Positions 10,601-40,300 of a DNA stretch of 64,000 nucleotides are shown in pieces (the stretch's first letter is position 1; each line of letters begins with the position of its first letter). The stretch comes from Felis catus. Taxonomy: Eukaryota. The stretch spans positions 19,408,001 to 19,472,000 of the forward strand of contig NC_058368.1 in assembly GCF_018350175.1 (NCBI RefSeq). The letters are read 5' to 3'. The translations under genes were made by a program, and so were the position numbers. The notes below the pieces were generated by a model. The model was given only the letters and a program-made list of their open reading frames with translations, searched no databases and was not told the DNA's origin.

Positions 10601-11443
10601 CGATACTGATGCTTCATGGGCCTGTTTTATGCCAGAAATCATGCTGTGTAATGTGGGGAGGCGCTACCGAAGAAATATAGGGCCTGGCATTGTCCTCAGT
10701 TAGCCAGCTGTCTTCTGGAGGATTTTAGTCCTATGTTCACTAAATAAGTAACTGCTGTTAAAATTGGCATAATTTCTGTTAATATTCCTCTTGAAGGCTC
10801 AGAAGAGTTCTTGAAGGGCCCCCTCTCTGAAGAAACAGAAGCATCAGACAGTGTGGATGGAGGCCACGATTCTGTCACTTTGGACCCAGAGAGACTGGAG
10901 CCTAGATTGGATGCAGAGGACACGTATGTTGGGATATACCTAGATGGTGTTAGTTGGTGCGCATGATGTCAATTATACCTTAATTTCAGGCTTAGCAGGA
11001 ACTGGTTATATTACTTGACATCACAAATGAATATTTATATCTTGATCTTTTGTCTGGGATGGGTAATGTGTTTTACAGTATTATTACAGAATTCCTGACT
11101 GAGCGGTATTTTATGATCGTTTAGCTTGGACTTACTATTTTTTAATATGTTGGATTTTATTTGCAAATGTTGTAGAAACATGAAAGAAGCAATCCTGTGG
11201 AAGGGATAACAATGTTTTCCCTCCATTCGGTTGCCTTATGGAGCTCGTTTTCCAAAAATGTGAATGTTGTGATGGTGGCGTTCTGTTTTGAGCCATCAAA
11301 AAAAATACTTGCTGTGCCCCTAATATGGAGGCTTAGTATCCAAATTGTTTCTTCACAGGGATTTTGAGGAGGACGACGACAGCCCTGACTGGGTGTCAGA
11401 ACTGAAGCTGCGAGCTGGCTGGCCAGGAGTGTCTGATGGGTAA
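88..11443 (+). CDS. NEK3: NEK3 serine/threonine kinase, 3' part (8 coding exons: 88-288, 926-998, 4271-4320, 7488-7587, 8115-8255, 8510-8644, 10797-10923, 11359-11443); 5' exons lie upstream of the window
   Basis: The spliced frame is open over 912 nt, from [16 protein letters not shown] to [27 protein letters not shown]. All junctions are GT-AG with matching phases. It matches the recalled mammalian NEK3 C-terminus and the NEK3-NEK5 tandem order. Confidence 0.96.
597..800 (-). mobile_element. CanSINE (SINEC)
   Basis: Reverse-strand tRNA-like head ending caggcacccc, (AG)n tract, poly-T tail. Confidence 0.9.
926..998 (+). CDS. NEK3: NEK3 exon ([24 protein letters not shown])
   Basis: ttttcag|ATC...AAAAAAAA|gtaaga; 73 nt, phase 0-1. 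Confidence 0.93.
1538..1892 (-). mobile_element. Older short CanSINE interrupted by a young SINE
   Basis: The tail at 1538-1568 continues at 1800-1892 (ggctcgaacttatgactctgagatcaaga...caggtgcccc). Confidence 0.75.
1570..1799 (+). mobile_element. Young SINEC_Fc-type CanSINE
   Basis: ggggcgcctgggtggcgcagtcggttaagcg head; TSD aagtaaactccatgct at 1553-1568 and 1800-1815. Confidence 0.95.
2374..2524. repeat. Compound (CTTC)n-(TTTC)n microsatellite in a SINE tail
   Basis: Read directly. Confidence 0.97.
2525..2714 (-). mobile_element. CanSINE
   Basis: Reverse head ending cccaagcgcccc. Confidence 0.9.
3051..3870 (-). mobile_element. Carnivore L1 3' end fragment, split by a SINE
   Basis: L1 3'UTR/ORF2-end text (gcaaatggcaagatttcattctttttgatggctgagtagtattcc); SINE TSD agttaagagtctct. 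Confidence 0.85.
3248..3570 (-). mobile_element. CanSINE with a duplicated head region
   Basis: Two consecutive ctgtcagca...gagcc...gatcatga...ctgagc segments between one TSD pair. Confidence 0.85.
4271..4320 (+). CDS. NEK3: NEK3 exon ([17 protein letters not shown])
   Basis: Long pyrimidine tract, tttttag|CAG...ATG|gtaagt; 50 nt, phase 1-0; tandem TAG/CAG acceptor. Confidence 0.9.
4538..4723. repeat. Compound (CTTC)n/(CCTC)n/(TTTC)n/(TTCCTTTC)n pyrimidine microsatellite
   Basis: Read directly. Confidence 0.97.
4850..5480 (-). mobile_element. Old L1M (L1MB-like) 3' fragment, split by a SINE
   Basis: Typical text: ctactttctgtctctat...ggaatcatacaatatttgtcctttgtgtctggctt. Confidence 0.7.
4901..5126 (-). 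mobile_element. Young SINEC_Fc-type CanSINE
   Basis: CpG-rich; TSD ccattctagccattttt at 4888 and 5127. Confidence 0.95.
6145..6397 (-). mobile_element. CanSINE
   Basis: TSD ccaccactgtc; reverse head. Confidence 0.88.
6628..6817 (-). mobile_element. CanSINE
   Basis: TSD ctcaaggcttt; reverse head. Confidence 0.88.
6968..7064 (-). mobile_element. CanSINE head-only fragment
   Basis: tRNA-like head with no (CT)n or poly-A part. Confidence 0.85.
7488..7587 (+). CDS. NEK3: NEK3 exon ([33 protein letters not shown])
   Basis: ttttcaag|CAA...AAAG|gtaagt; 100 nt, phase 0-1. Confidence 0.9.
8115..8255 (+). CDS. NEK3: NEK3 exon ([47 protein letters not shown])
   Basis: aaatcag|AT...AGAG|gtcagt; 141 nt, phase 1-1. 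Confidence 0.92.
8510..8644 (+). CDS. NEK3: NEK3 exon ([45 protein letters not shown])
   Basis: caactag|GT...CCAG|gtgact; 135 nt, phase 1-1; lies inside ORF 8443-8694. Confidence 0.94.
8905..9136 (-). mobile_element. CanSINE (follows an L1M fragment at ~8690-8880)
   Basis: Reverse head, (AG)n, T tail. Confidence 0.9.
9260..9478 (-). mobile_element. CanSINE
   Basis: TSD cttcattactttt. Confidence 0.9.
10797..10923 (+). CDS. NEK3: NEK3 penultimate exon ([43 protein letters not shown])
   Basis: cttgaag|GC...GACAC|gtatgt; 127 nt, phase 1-2. Confidence 0.93.
11359..11443 (+). CDS. NEK3: NEK3 last coding exon ([27 protein letters not shown])
   Basis: cttcacag|G GAT TTT...GGG TAA; stop codon at 11441-11443. 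Confidence 0.94.
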
Positions 11444-11659
11444 CGCCCAAGAAGTGCTCTGTCGTTAATATCGCGTAGCTGTTTAAAGTGAGGAATTAAT
11501 GTTTGGATGGTATCAGCTCACAGGATGTGTATTTTTCTTTGGACACAGAATGAAGAGGGGGAAACTGAATATTTAAAACTGTTCCTGATCAGTGTCACAA
11601 GGTTTAAAATATCTGTAACTCTCGAGTTTTTGAACTCCAAGAGAAGGCGTGGAAGAATG

Positions 11660-11805
11660 GCTCTGAGCTTCAGGCTTGCACTCAGAACAGAAATGGGATG
11701 CCGCTGCTTACATTTTGTGTGATTGTGGGAGATTATTTAACCTCTTGGAGCCCCAGTGTCCACAACTCTAAAACGAGGATAATAATGCCTTCCTCATAGG
11801 GACGC
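11660..11805 (+). mobile_element. MIR fragment in the NEK3 3'UTR
   Basis: MIR core-like ttatttaacctcttggagccccagtgtccacaactctaaaacgaggataataatgccttcctcatagg. Confidence 0.6.
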
Positions 11806-11913
11806 TGAACATAGACCATGGCAACGGCCCATAATGTTATTTCTGCGATTGTTATGATTTGTGTTTAATTGCTGCACAACTCTTTTTACATTTCCTAAAG
11901 GTTTGAGGATCAA

Positions 11914-11919
11914 AATAAA
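11914..11919 (+). terminator. Candidate NEK3 polyadenylation signal
   Basis: First AATAAA I found after the NEK3 stop (~470 nt downstream); further AATAAA at 14244 and 14252. Confidence 0.5.
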
Positions 11920-12539
11920 TTTAATTAGACCATAATGATGTCGTCCAGTTTTCCAGTAAGACTTATTTCTGGGTAGTGATCCATGATCTTCAGTGATCTT
12001 CACCAACAATCCGCCATCTTTAAATACGGCCCCTCATGGCACCCAGGTCAGCGGATCAGCTGTGGGACGGGGTGAAGGGGCTACAGATCTTGTCTGCAGT
12101 TGGCAGTCCTGGGCAGGAGAAAGAAACAGGCCAGAGGCGGGACGTATTGGACACTAGAGTGTGCCGTGGAACTAAGGGGATGCCAGTATGTGTGGGGCAT
12201 GACACACACGTGCTGGGGTCCCGTCATTCCATTGTCATTCCATAGTGGGATGCTGTTGTGAGGTGACATGTTTTACTATAGAAGAAAGAGGCTTCTCCCA
12301 GGGGATCTCCCCGAGCGAGTGTGCAAACAGCAGAAGCCCGAGGCAGTACGGGGAGCAGTGCTCCAGTGAAGAATGGGAAAGCAGTTGAATCTACAGCAGG
12401 ATGGTTACTGAGCATCTCCTGAAAATGTGGAATACATGCATCTTGTAGATGTAAACCATTTTTTTTTTAATTTTCAGGAACAAAAACCATGGTATAGCCC
12501 TTCACCCCACACATTTTATTTACCCTTAGACATCTAGTC

Positions 12540-13440
12540 AACCTGATTTGTTACTGCTGCTGTTAGCTTTGATTGCTTGATGAAGGTGATGTCTGCTACA
12601 AGGTTAAACTGTAAGGTTACTGGTTTTCGATTTCTGGGTCCTGTTCATTCCAAGTGAGTCACCAAGTCCAGCCCATACTCAGGTGCTGAGAAATTAAGCT
12701 GTACCTCCTGAAGGGGGCTGTCATCCAGAGCTAAGTCATTTGTATTTTTGCTTAAACTGTTCCAGCTTTGGCCATTGGGAGTTTTTCTGGTTACCTCTAT
12801 GTTCCTTTGACATGCCCTCATTCTTTTGTGTTTTGGGAACACTTCCTGGTACTTTCTGGTACTACAAGAAGACGGTCTAGGCTCATCTTGAAGCGTCTCT
12901 GTCCCAGCTTCAGAATCAGCCATGTCCCCGAGGAACCTTGGTTCCTGTCATGGTTTCAAAACCAGGATCGGGGTGCTGGGTGTGCTTGTTGCTACTGAAG
13001 TGTCACTGCTCCTAGGCCCTCTCAGCAGACAGAGCTAGGAAATCCATCTGTGTTTACTGTCCTATGCACATGCACACAACTATAGTCCTGTATCTCTCCA
13101 TCTGTATGTGTATTAAGCTAAGGGTGAGTTCATACTGATATCTTTGAGTCTGATTTAGTACCAAAGGTTCACCCTGGCCTTTCCCCTCGCTCTTCTGTAG
13201 CTTCTCTCTCTGATAGTGAGAAACCTGGCCCGAACCATCCACTATCCACTTAACTGCTCAACCCCAGGATACAGATGTAAAGCAGTTTCCAAATAATTAG
13301 CCCCTGCTCCCATGAGAAACAAATTTCCCAACTAGAGTACAGCATTTATGTGTTGTTCCTAGTGCTTTTAACCTTAGAGTTCCAGTTAAAACACCATTTC
13401 CCAGAGTTACTTAGGTTAGCTCCTTTTTAGCCGCTCTCTT
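12540..13440 (-). mobile_element. Old L1M (L1MC/MD-like) 3' fragment
   Basis: Recalled motifs caccaagtccagcccatactca, ctttggccattgggagtttttc, ttccttactttctgg-like. Confidence 0.55.
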
Positions 13441-13684
13441 GAAGACTTTTCAAGAATTAAGGTAGGCAGGGGTCACTTTAAGGATAGTTCCGGATACTCA
13501 GCTTCCATAAATAACAGTATTCGGTACCTCTTAGTCATCTCAAATTTTAGCATTGCCCCAGGGTGTAAATATTTCCAAACCACCAAACAAAGGGAACTTG
13601 GAATTATGTATAGTTATTGAGAGACTGAGTCTTGATTAGATGACAAATCTTTTCAAAAGTCAGATGGTTTGCAGAGTTTGCTTT

Positions 13685-13879
13685 TATTATTTAAATTTTT
13701 TTTTTTTTTTATTTTTGGGAGAGAGCAGGGGAGGGGCAAAGAGAGAGGGGGACAGAGGATCTGAAGTGGGCTCTGTGCTGATAGCAATCATCCCTGTGTG
13801 GGGCCTGAACTCCTTAACTATGAGATCATGACCTGAGCCAAAGTCTGGACACTAACCGACTGAGCCACCCAGGTGCCCC
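13685..13879 (-). mobile_element. CanSINE
   Basis: TSD cagagtttgctttt. Confidence 0.88.
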
Positions 13880-14819
13880 AACAGAGTTTTGCTTTTGAGG
13901 TACACTTTTAACAAAACTTCCTATTATTTATTTAAATGAATGAGATTTCTTAATACAGCTGGGAGGAAGGAAGGAAGGAAAGAAGGAAAGAAAAAAGGAC
14001 GGAGGAAAAGAAAAGAGGAAGGAAGGGAGGGATGAAAGAAAATCAAGAGAATCATTGTTGAACCTTGTCGATTCTAGCAAAAAGTTAGCACTCATCTGTG
14101 GATACTAATTGGGAGGAAGAGAAAAATCCATTGACATCTTTAAGAGATGAATTTCCATAACAAATTTAATGTTTAATGATTATTTATCAGTGTGATTCAT
14201 TTTATTTTTACCAGTTATATACTACTAGTAATGTTAATAATTCAATAAAAAAATAAAAGCCTATGATCAGGAAATGTAAATTTCCATTTATATGATAAGG
14301 TGATCAATATAACTTTGAAGCAGAAAAACCTTACCTATGGGGATATGACTTTAAGGAGAGAAAGAAATGATGTACACTTTGTGATTCTCAAAAGAAGCTT
14401 ACTTAAAAAAAAAATAATGATTGTTGGTTTCAAATTGCTGTAGTTTTCAGATTCCTTTGGATATGTCTTACTTGTGTCAATATTTATAATTGCTGGAAAT
14501 TACATCCTTTTCAACTACTTAGACATGTAATGAAACGTTTTAGACAGCAGCTTGGTGTGCAATTGGGAGTGGGGAATGGGGAGGAGGAGGAGGAGGGGGC
14601 CTGTTTGCAGGCCTCAGGGCGGCATCCAGTTTTGTAAAAGAACCCCCATGGAGGCCGCCAGCTGTAGACAAAACAGTCTCCATCTCTTGACGGTATTTGA
14701 GACCTTGCACAAAAAACTCTCCTTGTCTCGGTTTAGCGGATTCTTAAAACTGGGAGACCACAACCTTGCTGGGTTGTTGCAAACAGACATAAATATCAAA
14801 AACCGCAAACCATGTGGTA

Positions 14820-15810
14820 CGCAAGAAAGAGGCGCGGTGTGCTTGCGTGCTGGGATAGGCACTGGAGTCCCGACCTACGACAAAGTAACTCCAAACTCCC
14901 CGGCCCGGGACCCAACTTCTGGGTGGACTGCGTAGACCCCTCCTCTCGCAGCTTGCTCCCGGAGCCCCGCCTGCGTTTTCCCGGGCGGCTCCGCCCCGGC
15001 GGTCCGGAAGCGGGGCGGTCCGGGGGCCCAGATTCCCCCGGGACGCTTCCCAACCTGCGGAATCGGCTGAACAGGTATGCTGCGGGCGGGACGCCCCGGA
15101 TCCTAATCCCGAGCTGTCCCCGGAGCTCCGGGAGCCGCGGGGAAAGGGACGAGCCCCTGCGGGGTAGATAGGGTCTGCAGGGGAGCCGTCCGAAGTCCTG
15201 GGCCCGCGTCAGTCTCCGTGGCAACGTGCGACACGCCGCGCTCCCGCCAGCGCGCAAACTCGGCGCAAGCTCGGCCGCCCACCCGGCGGCCGCCTCCCGG
15301 GGTGCTTCTAAGGGAGAAGACTTGTCCCGAGAGCTGGGGGCTTCCACCCACTGGTGCTGTCTGGGCGGTGGGTCGCCGTCTCTCAGGTACGGGGCTGGTG
15401 CCCTCGAGTTCCGATTCCCCAGCCACCTTCCTCAAAACCCGATCCTCGGGTGTCTCAGGCCTCCCCTGGCAGCGGAGCTGGTTCCCAGCCCCATGCCACC
15501 CACGCAGTTGTCCCCCTTCCTACCCTGACACAAATTATCGAAAACATAACCTGCCTGCTCACGCAAGTTTTAAAAGTGGGCATGATGCCCTAATTGCAGT
15601 ATAAAGAGGAAACGCAAGGGAACCGTTTACAACAAAGTCTGCATTTCAGTCTGCAAATGCTTGGTTAGTCCACACTTGAAGACGTCGTGAAGTAGCCAAG
15701 TGCCCGCACCTGGGCAGGGAGGCACCTGACGGTGACTGCCGCCCGCTATTAGGTTTCGGCTACCGGGAGGAGCGCGGCCAGCGGGGGCGTGATTTTTCCC
15801 CACCGGTGCA
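14820..15810 (+). promoter_or_regulatory. NEK5: CpG island / NEK5 promoter and probable non-coding first exon
   Basis: Sharp GC- and CpG-rich block ~1-2 kb upstream of the NEK5 ATG exon; GC boxes near 14991 and 15011; candidate donors CAG|gtatgc (after 15074) and CAG|gtacgg (after 15386). Confidence 0.85.
15212..15225. promoter_or_regulatory. RFX X-box motif
   Basis: GTCTCCGTGGCAAC closely fits the X-box palindrome GTYNCCATGGCAAC, inside the CpG island. Confidence 0.65.
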
Positions 15811-16019
15811 CGGTTCTTGGTAATTTTCTAAACAAAAAGTGCAGTCAAGCCTTGATTTACACGCAGTTGCATTCCTCGAAAATTCAGTGTTCGTTAAAAC
15901 TGCAAAAAAAAAAAAAATCTGTATTTACATGTAAAATGGAATTTGGTTCTAGCCGCAGGTAATTATAAACGGATTTTTCCACGCACCTGAATGTGTGTGG
16001 GGATTTGCTAAGGTTGTAA

Positions 16020-16200
16020 GGCCGCAGGATAATCCTTTATCTTCAGGACTGTTCCTCGCATCGCAGGACATTAGTATCTGAGGCCCAAGCCACTTCTAAA
16101 TGCCAGAGTGCTTCTCCAACTCTGCCGAGAACAGGAAAACATCCACAAATTCCCAAGATGTCCCCTAGGGGGCAGCACGTCCCCGGTGAGAAGGGCCGAA
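16020..16200 (+). mobile_element. MER20-like hAT DNA transposon remnant
   Basis: ggataatcctt...ctgttcctcgcatcgcaggacatt...aaatgccag...atgtcccctagggggca...gagaa. Confidence 0.55.
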
Positions 16201-16606
16201 CTGTAAAACTGCGCGAGCCTTAAAGACATTCCTGCTTTATAGAGATGCCAAGACCCGAGGTGGTGTTATCTTTGATTCACAGAACAATCTTGCACATATG
16301 GGAATTGTTATTTCCATTTTAGGAATTGGGAAAATGAAGTTTTCAGAGATTAAGTGACTTCCCCAAGATCACAACACTACACTGTATCAAAGCTGAGTCT
16401 GACCTGAGATTCTACCAAAAAGCAGTTTCACTTTGGTTGTCTCCTGCGGCCACAAGGAAAGTGATTTGACTGTCTCGGTGAGGTTGGTAGGAAAATTTTA
16501 GCAAAATAAGTTCTTTTACGTTGAGTGATCAATTTTGTGACTTTATGAACAGTGTGTGATAAAATTTCATCGCTCTGATTTCAGGAGCCACCGTGCATTC
16601 GAGACA

Positions 16607-16723
16607 ATGGATAAATACGATGTGATTAAGGCCATTGGGGAAGGTGCCTTTGGGAAAGCATTCTTGGCTAAAAGGACATCGGATAGCAAGCACTGTGTTA
16701 TAAAGGAGATCGATTTTGCAAAG
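16607..16723 (+). CDS. NEK5: NEK5 coding exon 1 ([39 protein letters not shown]); exon starts at 16585
   Basis: tttcag|GAGCC, Kozak-like acaATGG, AAG|gtaaat; Gly-rich loop and catalytic Lys. Confidence 0.95.
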
Positions 16724-34300: not shown

Positions 34301-37300
34301 AGTTTGAATAGACAGATGATTCAGGAATCAGGATCTCTAAAGTTTGCAGATTTAATCACGCATTCTTCCTATGTTCATTTACATTTTATATTAAATTCCA
34401 TATTTGTAGAAACCCTCCTTTCTTCCTATCCAGGTATTGTTTTGCTTCATTTAATAAAAATACTTTTCTCTACAAAATTTTGAGTTACATTTCCCTCTGT
34501 TGGAAAAGAATGAAAATTATAACAATCTTAGCATCTGGAGTATAGCTTTTTTCCTTTTGTTTTTCTTTTTCTGTGTAACCTGGCATCCAAAGAACCAATG
34601 AAATTTTAGAATAGTTTAAGGAAATCTTTACAGGCCTAGAACACATTTTTAGAAAGAGGCTCATGGCCAGCTACGAGAAAATAAAATCAAGACTAAGAAA
34701 GGAAATTAAGTTTTAAAAGTAAGATATTTGTTGTTTTTATATTAGATACATATATACTGATAATTCATTAAAGTTGTTAACAACCTCACAGATTCTCTGC
34801 CTCTTCTGCTTTCCCTCTCTGCCCTGGGCACCCTCTTTCCACTGAAAAGGAAACACTCGTGGCACCAGGGTTATCAGGAAATGCTGCTTATCTACTGTCC
34901 TAGTGCAGTTAGCAGACCAGTGTTAAGAAAAAAGAAAATCATGAACTGCCTCCCTCTCTCCCCTGCTTCTACTTATCTTTTTCTGTACTTTTTCTGTACT
35001 TTGATACCAGTGCATTCAAATTGCCTTTTGCAACCTCCATTTTTCTAGCTATAAAAAGAGAATAATGTGATAAGATGGTATTTCTAGTAGTTTCGTTCAT
35101 ATAAGTTCGGACACACAAATGTGTCATTTCTCTCTTTTTGTACATTATCATGAAGACATTTCAATGACCACCAGACCACTGACCAGTTTCGTTTAATGTT
35201 CCCTCTACAGATTCTGAGTTGGTTTGTACAGATTTCTCTAGGACTAAAATATATTCATGACAGGAAGATCTTACACAGGGACATAAAAGCACAGGTAAGA
35301 GTTCAGAGAGAAGATCAAGACAGAAACCGATCTTGCTGTTTTCTTGAAATATCTCCCACAACATAGCATTCTCTCTATTTATAGAACATTTTTCTTAGCA
35401 AGAATGGAATGGTTGCAAAGCTTGGGGACTTTGGGATAGCAAGAGTTCTGAACAAGTAAGTGCTTTTAAAAATCCTTTTTCTTTCTATTCATAACAGCCA
35501 AAATATGTATTTTTAGGTATCATGAATTAAGATATTAAAAGCTTGGTTTCCAGATAATTTGAGATAACTATTTCTATAAATGCCTTAAGTCATTCAGATG
35601 ATACTTGGTCTGAGATTAAAATTTCCAAGATAAATCTCGGTATAATACAATGATGGTGGCAGTATTGTGTAGTGTGAGATAAGCTTATCACAGGAGATGT
35701 GACTGAATATGCACAAAGCTAGTGCATTTAGTGAAACAGGCAAATTCACACATGCTCCGGGGAATGTATCGATGCAACTGCTTTGGAAGACAATTTAGTG
35801 GTAATAAGTATCAAGAGATTTTTAATCATTCTATTCCTGGGAATAGGAATAATTTAAATGCCTTATAATTGGGAAATAGGTAAATTTTATAAAACACGGC
35901 ATAAGCGTGGACCTGAATGTTATGTAGCCATTTATATTTATGATTTTGAAGACTTCTTGATGACATGGGAACAAACTTTGTCATATGAAGGCAAAAAATG
36001 GAATTCTGAATTTTAAATCCTCTGTGATCACAGTCATATGAAAAATATGCCTGGAAAAAAGATGAGAAGGAAATATATCCAAATTTTAAATAATAGCTGT
36101 TTTGGGGTAGTGAGATTCTGGGTAATTTTTTTCTTCTTTATTCACTTTCGTGTTTTCCAAATCTTAAGCCATGAGATTGCATTATTTTGGTAATTGGAAA
36201 GGGGGAATTCTTTCTGCATCTAAGAGTTTTGTAATATAACAATTGTACTTCTTTGTGGAGTCTTTGAGCCATAAATTTGTTTTATGTGTTGATTTGGGGG
36301 AGGTAAATTATAAACTTAAAAATCAACTAACTTTAAAAAAAATCAACTAACTTTATTATTCTTGTTATTAGTATGCAATATGTTTGCTTTATTTCAGTAT
36401 GTGCATTCATCAAATGTTGTGTTATCCATTTTTATACTTTTTTTCTTGCATGTCTGTGTCTTAAGCCTTTTCTTACTCCAGTAATCAACTGTGTTGTTTT
36501 ATTATTTAATATGATTTGCTAGTTCCATGGAACTTGCTAGAACTTGTATTGGAACACCTTACTACCTGTCCCCAGAGATCTGTCAGAATAAACCCTACAA
36601 CAATAAAACGTGAGTTACCGACTATTGGTTTGAAAGTCTCAGTACTAACACTGGTAGGTTCCCTCTTTCTTATGGTACTTATGTAATTGCATTTTCTTCA
36701 TGTGTGAAATGGGGACCCCAGTGACTATCTTGACCACTTCACTTAAAAATACAGGTGATAAAAGGAATATTGAAAATTGCAGACACTGTGATGTCCGTCT
36801 TTCTATTTGCTCTTCATACCTTCTAAACGCTATTTAGCCAAATTCAGGAAAGTGTTGTGGATGGGTCAGATAGAAGGCAGGGAGGTCTGGTGGCAGAGCC
36901 CCGTCGCCAACTCGACCAAGTGGTTAACCTCTGTGGGCCTCAGTTCCCCTAGCAGTAATAGAGAGTGTGGGCCAGGTAATTGTTAAGGTATCTTCCAGCT
37001 TTAAAACCCAGCTAGTTTTATGAATACGATACTAAGCCCGCTGTTCAGGGGTAATATTGATATACGCAGTAGGAAAAGGTGAACATGAGGTAGTTTTTAC
37101 TTCTATGTAAGAAGGGGAAAAAAAATCCACTTTTCAAAGCTGGCTGCCAGATGAACTTGTTGGCTTATCAGGAAGACTGAGTTCCTTCTGGGAGTTAATT
37201 TTCCATTTGTTTAGGAAAATCCCCAAGAGATGTTTGGCTGTTTGACTTTGCAAGAGATAAGTGGAGGGCAAAGCCCAGATGGCAGAGATTTCTAAAAAAG

Positions 37301-40300
37301 AAGAGTAAACATTTCTCTGCATAGAAAAACAGGCTTTTTTTTTTTTTTTTTTAATAGCCTCTAATACCAAGAGGGGGTTTGGCCTCAAGTTAAGCAGCAA
37401 GGCAGCTGGTCCAACCTGGGTGGGAGGGCAGACTGTCCCGAGAAGAGCCCTGGGTCAGCAGCATTGTTTTGTTTCCTTGTACTGCTTTTTAAGAATTTGA
37501 ATCAACATTTAAGTAAACTGATTTGGTGCTTCTGATAATTGGAAATCTTTAAGTAAACTGATTTGGTGCTTCTGATAATTGGAAATCTTAGCAAAAATCA
37601 GCTGGGTACCCCGCTTTAGCTCAGAAAAACAGTCCCTGGTTCACCATAGTCCGCACCACAAACAGGGTGGTGTAAGACTTGTAAATGTTCCCATCCGGCC
37701 CGGTGGCTGCATTCCCTGTTGGACCACCCTGGCTATAGGGGGCGCTCTGGGACAGGGGAGGCTGTGGACCTACAGATGACCCGGTGAGGACAAAATTCTG
37801 TGTGATCGTAGGAAGTGGGGCCAGTGAGTTTCTAGAAACTCTTAGAAAAATGCTAGGAAACAGCTGGAAGTTGTTTCCTACCTGTTCTATAATCATCACC
37901 CTTCATTTCCTCAAGCCTTTGGGATGTCTTTCTCGGCTCCTGCTGCACACAGAGGAAGTATTGCTAAGCAGTGGAACCCTTTTCCTCACTGTACTGAATC
38001 CTTGTTTTCATTTTTTTTTCACTTCTCATTATGTTTTCTTCAGTTTTTTAAGATTTAATGATGCTTTTTGTTCTATAAAGTAGCTCCTTATTAAATCAAT
38101 CATATGTAAGTACTAAAGAGCAAGTCTCCAGTCATGTATTGTTAGCACATTTTTCAGTTTATGGAGTGCCAACTGCTATGTCCTTACTTAGTAGAACTTT
38201 GGTTCTGTCAATAGCCTGGAGTAGAATATACCTTTGTAAATCAACCCAATTTTCCCCTTTGAATCAAAACAAATCTGTGTTGAGTCCTGCCTTCTTCCCC
38301 TGAATTGTTCAAAATCCCATACATACACATATTTTCTTTGAGCATGTGAAGCTGAAAACCCCGAGGCCCTCAGATTGTAGCAAAGTTTGTGTATCTTTTC
38401 TCTGCTGGGATTCTGACCAACTACATATTGTTTTAATTTTACCTCTTAGGACTAAGAATAGATAACGTATCTGAACGCATTTGTAAAAAAAAAACTGGTC
38501 AACCTGTAAAATTGTAAAGATACACAAATACAAAGCACTGTAAGGATAAAGGCTTTAATTCGGAATTATGGATATTTCTTGGTGTGTGAACTCTTGTCTT
38601 CCCCAGGGATATTTGGTCTCTTGGCTGTGTCTTATATGAGCTTTGCACACTCAAGCATCCGGTAAGTATATTAATTGTCAAATTAATCTTGAATTATTGA
38701 AACTGTGTAAGTGAAATTAACTTTTGAGAGGAAAAAGGTTAATGTTTGGAGTTACTAGATTGTTAAAAATTATATGGACAAGATGTTAAGACGAATGGTC
38801 GACCTATATATACTGACATGGAAAGATGTCCAACTTAAATATTCAGGTTAGAGAATAGTATACATAGAATATTTTCATTAAAAATAAATCATGTGAGGGA
38901 CACCTGGGTGGCTCATTTGATTAAGTGTCCGACTCTTGATTTCAGCTCCGGTCATGATCTCACGGTTTGTGAGTCTGAGCCCCACATGGGGCTCTGTGCT
39001 GGCAGTATGCAGTCGGCTTGGGTTTCTCCCTCTCCCTCTCTCTGCCCCTCCCCTGCTCACCTGCGTGCTCTCTCCCTCTCTCAAAATAAATCAACGTAAA
39101 AAGTTAATTGTTAAAAAAATAAAAATAAATACATTGTGTGCGAATATAATCAGCAAAGGGGAAGGGTGCATGGGGTGAAGTCTATAGGAAACCAAGCACA
39201 AGCTTCTAAGAGCCTCTCCCAATGGAGTCACACAGGATACGCTAATTTCTCCAGCAACATGTTGTGACAGCACATGTGACATGTTAGCAACCAGAGAAGC
39301 TCTTTAGAGACCCAGTGCCCAAGGTTTTTATGTGGCACTGGGTCATGTAGGCACCCTATATCTGGCATATACTAAGCTTCCAGAGTCCCAGGAAGAAAGC
39401 AGGTGTTCAGCGTAAACCATATTATTTGCACAAGTGGTATAGGCAAAGAAAGCCACTCTGAATATTTAGAGAGTGGTGGGAACTCTCCTGCAATGCGAGT
39501 TCCCAGATGCCAGCCAAGGTGCAATATAGTAAGCAGGTTCTTCTAAGGAGAGCGGTCCTTAACCTGCTGTGTTAACTCTCTTCTGCTGCTATTACTCTTA
39601 TTATTAATTATTACTATTATTGGCAATGGCCACACAGCTAGTAAGGGCCTGATCAAAACCGGATCTTTACAGCCACCCCAGGCTGCTGAGCATTATTATT
39701 ATGTGTAAATAACCAATGACTTCACAAAATGGAAGGTTTTGTGGTTCATGAGGAATTTTTGAGGAGATGTTTATGTCATATTAATTTAGAAAGCAAGATG
39801 TAAAATTTCATGTTATTCTGACCTCAACTCTGTAAACATTATTTTACTTTTTCTTTCTTTCTTTCTTTTTTTTTTTTTAACGTAAGCTCTATGCCCAACA
39901 TGGGGCTTCAACTCACAACCCCGCACTGAGCCAGGCAGGCGCCCCAATAAACATTATTTTGAAAAAAGACTAGAAGGAAATATACCGCTGGCCGGGAAAA
40001 TCATATGTACTTGCCCTCTTTGTAGCTTCCTATGCCTTCTCGTTTTTTAGAATGAATAAATATCATTTTGATAATAAGGAAAAATTAAAACCAAAAAAAC
40101 CTTGTTTTACGTAACATGACATCACATTGGGTAACTACCTATAATACCTACTCATGAAGTATTAGTTGATGACAACAATTTAGGGTGGACTATTGTGCTT
40201 CCAAATGAAGCTTTAAACCATTGTTTTTTGTTTTTGCATTTTTTTTTTTTTTTTTGAGATTCAAATTCCACTTTGTTTATTTAAAAAGTCCGGATTGGGC

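Follow-up and report, generated by a model that had tools for sequence, protein, structure and literature searches.

Genes that lie on the same strand with only a short gap between them can give rise to cis-spliced read-through chimeras (cis-SAGe, transcription-induced chimeras, or conjoined genes), in which a late exon of the upstream gene is joined to exon 2 of the downstream gene at canonical parental splice sites. The tandem paralogous enzymes NME1 and NME2 are fused in frame by such read-through into a two-domain protein, NME1-NME2, which also has protein-level support. Two protein-kinase domains per chain are found in RSK and MSK, where one fixed gene encodes both domains and the linker between them is conserved. 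One review describes chimera-forming pairs as close same-strand genes (median about 8.5 kb), and read-through RNAs as tending to remain nuclear and to be translated poorly (PMC13501980). In one study, the second-to-last exon was used at 28 of 43 read-through junctions and the second exon at 30 of 43; in-frame chimeras were a minority both there (17/43; PMC5053695) and in another study (48/297), whose Table 1 gives NME1-NME2 as an in-frame chimeric example (PMC2953495).

NEK3 and NEK5 of the cat, analyzed here within a window of 64,000 nt (the whole stretch of DNA examined), fit this read-through rule by their geometry, as the original prediction of a NEK3-NEK5 fusion had held: the two genes are close and both on the + strand, and the NEK5 ATG exon is exon 2 in the cat RefSeq NEK5 models X1/X2, which splice 15074 straight to 16585. 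Cis-spliced chimeras are, however, defined by observed RNA, whereas the NEK3-NEK5 join is predicted here from sequence; NME1-NME2 has transcript and protein support, whereas no support of either kind was found for NEK3-NEK5 in the records searched; and, in contrast to RSK and MSK, a NEK3-NEK5 protein would depend on an optional splice whose frame is apparently not conserved. Both the sequence and the chaining of exons with database proteins bear out the coordinates proposed for the join: a phase-2 NEK3 donor at 10923, a NEK5 acceptor at 16585 that opens a 22-nt leader ahead of the ATG at 16607, and a skipped distance of 5661 nt (Table 1). By exon chaining, the predicted 10923>16585 join preserves both reading frames: it is in frame, and no stop occurs in any of the 10 NEK5 exons tested, a span that includes the kinase domain.

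Table 1. Features of the NEK3-NEK5 interval, in window coordinates.
Feature	Position	Strand	Basis
NEK3 coding exon, 127 nt, phase-2 donor	10797..10923	+	sequence, 100% identity to felid NEK3, exon chaining
NEK3 last main coding exon, 81 nt	11359..11439	+	felid models, exon chaining
NEK3 terminal exon in felid RefSeq models, contributing MKRGKLNI	11549..11919	+	felid models, poly(A) signal
Intergenic exon of puma model P0308, 216 nt	12047..12262	+	puma model, exon chaining
CpG island and GC boxes, likely NEK5 promoter	14500..16000	.	sequence composition
NEK5 first-exon region, 288 nt	14787..15074	+	acceptor 14787 (puma model), donor 15074
Degenerate homologue of extra ape/human NEK5 5′ exon (putatively about 69 nt)	16437..16507	+	comparison with ape/human models
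NEK5 ATG exon, 139 nt: leader 16585-16606 (22 nt) and 117 coding nt	16585..16723	+	sequence, exon chaining

The predicted join is nevertheless probably ordinary and its in-frame fit likely a coincidence, because chance often produces such a fit, the fit is apparently lost in three other mammals, and no record of the joined RNA or protein was found. The fit of 10923 to 16585 is no better than chance (rate 0.23–0.30): 24 of the 80 joins of a NEK3 donor to a NEK5 acceptor in the cat window are open, and among 20,000 draws of a random leader of 21–23 nt, the fraction both in frame and open is 0.23. The later NEK3 donor at 11439, also phase 2, would likewise join 16585 in frame. A tandem acceptor at 16588, named in the original prediction, is indeed in frame, but only because it lies 3 nt from 16585, and it was rejected as independent evidence. 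On a crude matrix derived from 16 sites of the window, it scores −7.6 and acceptor 16585 scores +9.0. Counted against the preferred explanation, five of seven cat routes tested are open; counted for it, every candidate intervening exon (22/22) would close the frame, and four AG sites located before 16585 outscore it.

The 3′ end of NEK3 is more complex than first proposed. The exon at 10797-10923 was taken to be penultimate, which holds for 2 of 21 felid NEK3 models, where intron 11440-11548 is retained; in 18 of the 21 felid-tailed proteins (cat RefSeq P0447 among them) this further intron is spliced out, so that 10797-10923 is third from last and 11359-11439 penultimate. Donor 11439, which scores only −2.8 on the window matrix and is directly followed by a stop codon if left unspliced, is spliced to 11549 in felid RefSeq models and to 12047 in a puma model. 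The terminal exon is drawn to the first AATAAA at 11914, a signal rather than a mapped cleavage site, which precedes acceptor 16585 by 4671 nt; further canonical AATAAA signals lie at 14244 and 14252. The terminal acceptor 11359 scores 6.3, in the middle of the range of window exons (0.6–10.4). These signals and this mid-range score favor a rival reading, to which we assign a lesser though substantial probability, in which NEK3 terminates efficiently, no chimeric RNA reaches a detectable level, and the gene models of puma and hamster described below are prediction errors. The origin of chimeras in close same-strand pairs speaks against this rival (PMC13501980).

The 5′ end of NEK5 also bears on this rival. 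The GC-box cluster within the likely promoter occupies 14983-15084, and the cat RefSeq NEK5 X1/X2 models reach at least to 14812, upstream of it, which counts against an absence of chimeric RNA. In the cat RefSeq NEK5 models P0121/P0122, acceptor 16585 is used and the identical leader is part of the translation. Since protein P0397 is common to four or more cat RefSeq accessions, there are probably further 5′ UTR forms. The first-exon region is open in cat and its frame is broken in puma. The degenerate homologue of the extra ape/human exon carries stops, an indel, and AT in place of the donor GT in cat; in apes/human the exon appears frame-neutral and open, which was counted against the preferred explanation.

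Two gene models in other species cross from one gene into the other. Puma RefSeq NEK3 XP_025779831.1 (P0308, 669 aa) resembles the proposal in that a NEK3 model runs across the gap into the first exon of NEK5, which makes some read-through plausible; it differs in its route, which leads from donor 11439 through an intergenic exon to acceptor 14787, and it lacks the second kinase, since it stops inside NEK5 exon 1. Its two GT-AG introns lie outside the normal structure of either gene, which argues against a complete lack of chimeric RNA, whereas the absence of the puma route from any other model (of 203 candidates, the two cat NEK5 models were the only matches) argues for it. It is possible that the model is ab initio in part, and read-through itself would then lose its support. 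The puma route is closed in cat by an in-frame TAG at 12243. Chinese hamster EGV95008.1 (P0243, 652 aa), the only one of 501 related proteins compared to contain motifs of both genes, likewise passes from the C-terminus of NEK3 into the leader and start of NEK5; unlike the proposal, it keeps the last NEK3 coding exon and reads the leader from its first base in a different phase. It lacks HRD in both kinase halves, has kinase exons missing, and forms a single-member cluster; it is most likely a prediction merge, and these features fit the reading in which no chimeric RNA is detectable. As support for 10923>16585 it was rejected, given its other route, other phase, and broken kinases. A frog protein (P0251, 473 aa) has a long tail past the NEK3 end, but this tail is not NEK5.

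Conservation of the leader frame across mammals, set as a check by the original prediction, apparently does not hold throughout: gene-model peptides indicate apparent shifts in 3 of 9 lineages. The 22-nt frame is kept and open in six (cat, Pteropus, lemur, apes/human, rabbit, and one further record), which was counted against the preferred explanation, and appears shifted in the other three, with 21 nt in hamster, 20 or 23 nt in naked mole-rat, and 24 nt in desman, which argues against a conserved function; the three shifted leaders are peptides of submitter gene predictions rather than DNA, and the lineage sample is biased. Allowing one indel saves 5, 3, and 4 substitutions, respectively, whereas in the six lineages without a shift it saves no more than 1; substitution-only simulations gave such gains in 0–0.7% (hamster), 1–10% (naked mole-rat), and 0.3–2.6% (desman) of runs. 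In desman, the intron read-in P0069 places the NEK3 donor at the same position. Excluded from the count were grey whale P0145, which gave no alignment (cost 6–8 at every length), and leaders that were too short: fallow deer (MLET, 10 proteins), two whale partials (T), and P0185 (MET).

A real translated isoform, for example in testis or ciliated epithelium, with two intact NIMA kinase domains, would be about 1313 residues long, of which 477 would come from NEK3, 7 from a linker, and 829 from the whole of NEK5; via donor 11439 it would retain all of NEK3. Such an isoform would agree with the frame open through the NEK5 kinase domain, with the junction pattern that is commonest in read-through (PMC5053695), with the frame apparently kept in six lineages (in apes also across the extra exon), and with the acceptor at 16585 (9.0) outscoring 11359 (6.3). 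Against it stand the high chance rate of the frame fit, the three apparent leader frameshifts, and the protein records: none of the 501 proteins, among them numerous RefSeq and Ensembl-derived isoforms of mammals such as human, cat, pig, and horse, carries the 10923>16585 junction, nor does any of the 120 matches listed of 141 or the 120 listed of 176, with protein clusters covered by sampled members. We regard this isoform as highly unlikely. More doubtful still is regulated read-through in cats, and possibly primates and bats, yielding a translated protein of about 1300 residues with two active kinases via 10923>16585 or 11439>16585.

No report of NEK3-NEK5 read-through or fusion was found in the literature text searches, and none of the listed papers that mention both kinases and a fusion concerns this pair, as judged by title or the start of the abstract. 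The chimera was absent from the supplements of PMC13429570 (42 k characters), PMC12721320 (63 k), PMC11128028 (86 k), PMC13721984 (18 k), and PMC4824105 (2.1 M characters, file 1 excepted), and from 12 of the 33 supplementary files of PMC5431906, in which NEK3 appeared only in gene lists and NEK5 not at all; large GTEx and cell-line tables, outside the scope of these searches, may list the pair. That no entry was found in the texts and supplements searched is in line with chimeric RNA being undetectable.

We lean toward ordinary, low-level cis-spliced read-through at most, with no functional two-kinase protein made in a meaningful amount. NEK3 and NEK5 would then be an ordinary pair of tandem paralogs, each with a 3′ end or promoter of its own. 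RNA polymerase would sometimes pass the NEK3 poly(A) signal at 11914, 4.7 kb before 16585, and the spliceosome would pair a NEK3 donor (10923 or 11439) with an acceptor at 12047, 14787, or 16585 or with a cryptic one. The resulting chimeric RNAs would be of the common cis-spliced read-through type, mixed and at a low level. The 10923-16585 fit would arise because intron phase and leader length happen to agree, rather than through selection, and a stable, functional two-kinase protein would not accumulate to a meaningful amount. The claim of such a protein is weakened by the 1-in-4 frame match, the lack of a protein record, and the apparent frameshifts in 3 of 9 lineages; a functional two-kinase protein seems very improbable.

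If regulated read-through yielded such a protein, the NEK3 promoter could drive NEK5 kinase activity in cells where the NEK5 promoter is silent. If real and translated, its product would be a two-kinase NIMA protein, of which no report was found in the literature searched, and NEK3 and NEK5 knock-down and antibody results would be harder to read. The product would couple two kinases that have been tied to left-right patterning, centrosomes, and cilia (PMC12564199; PMC10809009). On present evidence, the pair is one among many frame-compatible neighbors and nothing is changed. A deletion of the NEK5 catalytic exons, suggested by absent tblastn matches, was rejected; the exons are present at 35211-35294, 35385-35455, and 38607-38661.

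The splice geometry and open reading frame at this locus permit NEK3 to be joined to NEK5. NEK3 exon 10797–10923, a 100% match to felid NEK3, ends in phase 2; the NEK5 ATG exon lies at 16585–16723 with a 22-nt 5′ leader; and 5661 nt separate the two, all as originally predicted. The join 10923>16585 is in frame, also as expected, and runs without a stop across the ten NEK5 exons examined, the whole kinase domain included, for a predicted product of ~1313 residues. The NEK5 exons are at or near 100% identity to the Felis catus RefSeq protein P0122 (a NEK5 model). The ATG exon is exon 2 in RefSeq models X1 and X2 because the upstream exon is spliced directly onto it (see table); the usual read-through pattern predicts an exon-2 acceptor downstream, here 16585 (section 5 of PMC13501980; PMC5053695). 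The putative join would work as an ordinary cis-spliced read-through chimera and, if it exists, is a new example of that known class.

Features of the NEK3–NEK5 interval
Feature	Position	Strand or location	Basis
NEK3, last 11.9 kb	within window	+	sequence
CpG island	about 14500–16000	between NEK3 end and NEK5 ATG exon	sequence
NEK5, first part	within window	+	sequence
NEK5 first exon to ATG exon splice	15074 directly onto 16585	+	cat RefSeq NEK5 X1/X2

A fit of frame is not rare by chance: 24 of 80 joins are open (8 NEK3 donors × 10 NEK5 acceptors in the window), and random 21–23-nt leaders placed after donor 10923 gave an open, in-frame join in 0.23 of 20,000 draws. In-frame shares of published chimeras are 17/43 (PMC5053695) and 48/297 (PMC2953495). 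By a crude matrix built from 16 window sites, four AG sites upstream of 16585 outscore it; the tandem acceptor at 16588, only 3 nt away, is in frame as proposed but adds no support, scoring −7.6 vs. +9.0 for 16585. Each of the 22 matrix-predicted candidates for an intervening exon would close the frame. Five of seven cat routes tested are open, including those from both NEK3 donors (10923 and 11439) through 14787–15074 to 16585.

Among the 21 NEK3 proteins that carry the felid tail, exon 10797–10923, presented as penultimate, has that position in only 2, both of which stop at the unspliced stop. Eighteen, including cat RefSeq P0447, end in MKRGKLNI, which needs an intron at 11440–11548 after an 81-nt exon (11359–11439); with this intron spliced out, the penultimate donor in most models is 11439. 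Like 10923, that donor is phase 2, and the join 11439>16585, likewise open, would retain all of NEK3; the donor scores weakly (−2.8 vs. 4.4–12.3 for true donors, window matrix). The short intron, at the NEK3 coding end, swaps the stop for MKRGKLNI, an ending seen in none of the non-felid NEK3 tails compared among matches listed for the NEK3 exon.

The remaining felid protein is the puma RefSeq NEK3 P0308 (XP_025779831.1; 669 aa), which runs from donor 11439 through an intergenic exon (12047–12262) to position 14787, in the NEK5 first-exon region, where it ends. Were reads to support its introns, transcription would cross the NEK3–NEK5 gap in felids. Its route is not 10923>16585 and gives no second kinase. 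The cat counterpart of the intergenic exon has a TAG at 12243, and among 203 candidates searched for the puma-specific tail only the two cat NEK5 models matched. The cat frame in 14787–15074 diverges from that of puma after about 14960.

Leader conservation was compared through NEK5 models that translate it (peptides from submitter predictions), a sample in which only open leaders are visible and in which the frame is kept in six of nine lineages and apparently shifted in three. A length of 22 nt fits cat, Pteropus, lemur, apes with human, rabbit and one further record, where allowing a frameshifting indel spares no more than one substitution. The hamster leader fits 21 nt (4 vs. 9 substitutions), that of the naked mole-rat 20 or 23 nt (2 or 3 vs. 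5) and that of the Pyrenean desman 24 nt (2 vs. 6). In substitution-only simulations (1,500 per rate) the hamster gain of 5 was reached in 0–0.7% of runs, the desman gain of 4 in 0.3–2.6% and the naked mole-rat gain of 3 in 1–10%, which makes the last the weakest case. The NEK3 donor position in desman (record P0069) is the same as in cat, and is assumed so in hamster and naked mole-rat; on this basis the fusion would lose its frame in these three lineages. The comparison omits grey whale, deer, two whale partials and P0185, which did not align or were too short. Ape and human NEK5 models point to an extra 5′ exon of ~69 nt (length inferred), since four different first exons converge on the same 22 residues; this exon seems to preserve the frame and to contain no stop, so that an in-frame join may be possible in human as well. 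The cat homologue of this exon (16437–16507) has stops and AT instead of the donor GT, consistent with either gain in primates or loss in cats.

Protein records bear on whether such a product is made. Among matches listed, none of 120 proteins continued from NEK3 into NEK5 (141 matches to the NEK3 exon query) and none of 120 carried NEK3 upstream of NEK5 (176 matches to the NEK5 exon query); a NEK3 C-terminus profile gave 66 matches among 1.84 billion representatives. Of 501 proteins compared in total, with cluster members among those listed (≤15 per cluster), 234 had the NEK3 exon motif, 190 the NEK5 start motif and one both. This 652-residue Chinese hamster prediction (P0243, EGV95008.1) was rejected as fusion evidence and read as a prediction merge, because it is the sole member of its cluster, retains the NEK3 last coding exon and lacks the HRD motif in both halves.

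A full-text literature search found no paper on a NEK3–NEK5 chimera, nor was there an entry in the chimera supplements searched, whose large tables were PMC4824105 and part of PMC5431906 only. That no detectable chimera forms at all is a serious, if lesser, possibility, to be set against the short same-strand gap and the puma model. A translated two-kinase isoform is improbable, although the frame is open. According to a 2026 review (PMC13501980, section 10), RNAs of the read-through type tend to remain in the nucleus and to be translated poorly. A functional two-kinase isoform is more doubtful still, given the apparently shifted lineages and the 10923>16585 junction in 0 of 501 proteins. We consider it fairly probable that rare, mixed chimeras occur: termination would occasionally fail at the NEK3 signal (11914), and a NEK3 donor would then pair with one of several downstream acceptors, with no selected function. 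In human, NEK5 protein has been reported from spermatocytes, spermatids and the roots of airway cilia (PMC10809009).

Several NEK5 models merit comment. X1 and X2 (P0121, P0122) start at an ATG at 14812, which is Ile in puma, and so gain 95 N-terminal residues (region 14812–15074); this extension is missing from the other felid NEK5 models listed and is probably a longest-ORF artefact. Fallow deer models (P0158, P0451–P0460) begin four codons upstream (MLET), at an in-frame ATG within the leader. The three rabbit models compared (P0162, P0468 and P0469) are just 126–142 residues long; NEK5 in rabbit could be truncated or wrongly annotated. Candidate alternative 5′ UTR exons lie at 15888–15958 (donor score 7.7) and 16047–16185 (8.9); one NEK5 protein is common to several cat RefSeq transcripts, consistent with alternative UTRs. 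Two more AATAAA motifs (14244 and 14252), shortly 5′ of the CpG island, could be back-up NEK3 3′ ends.
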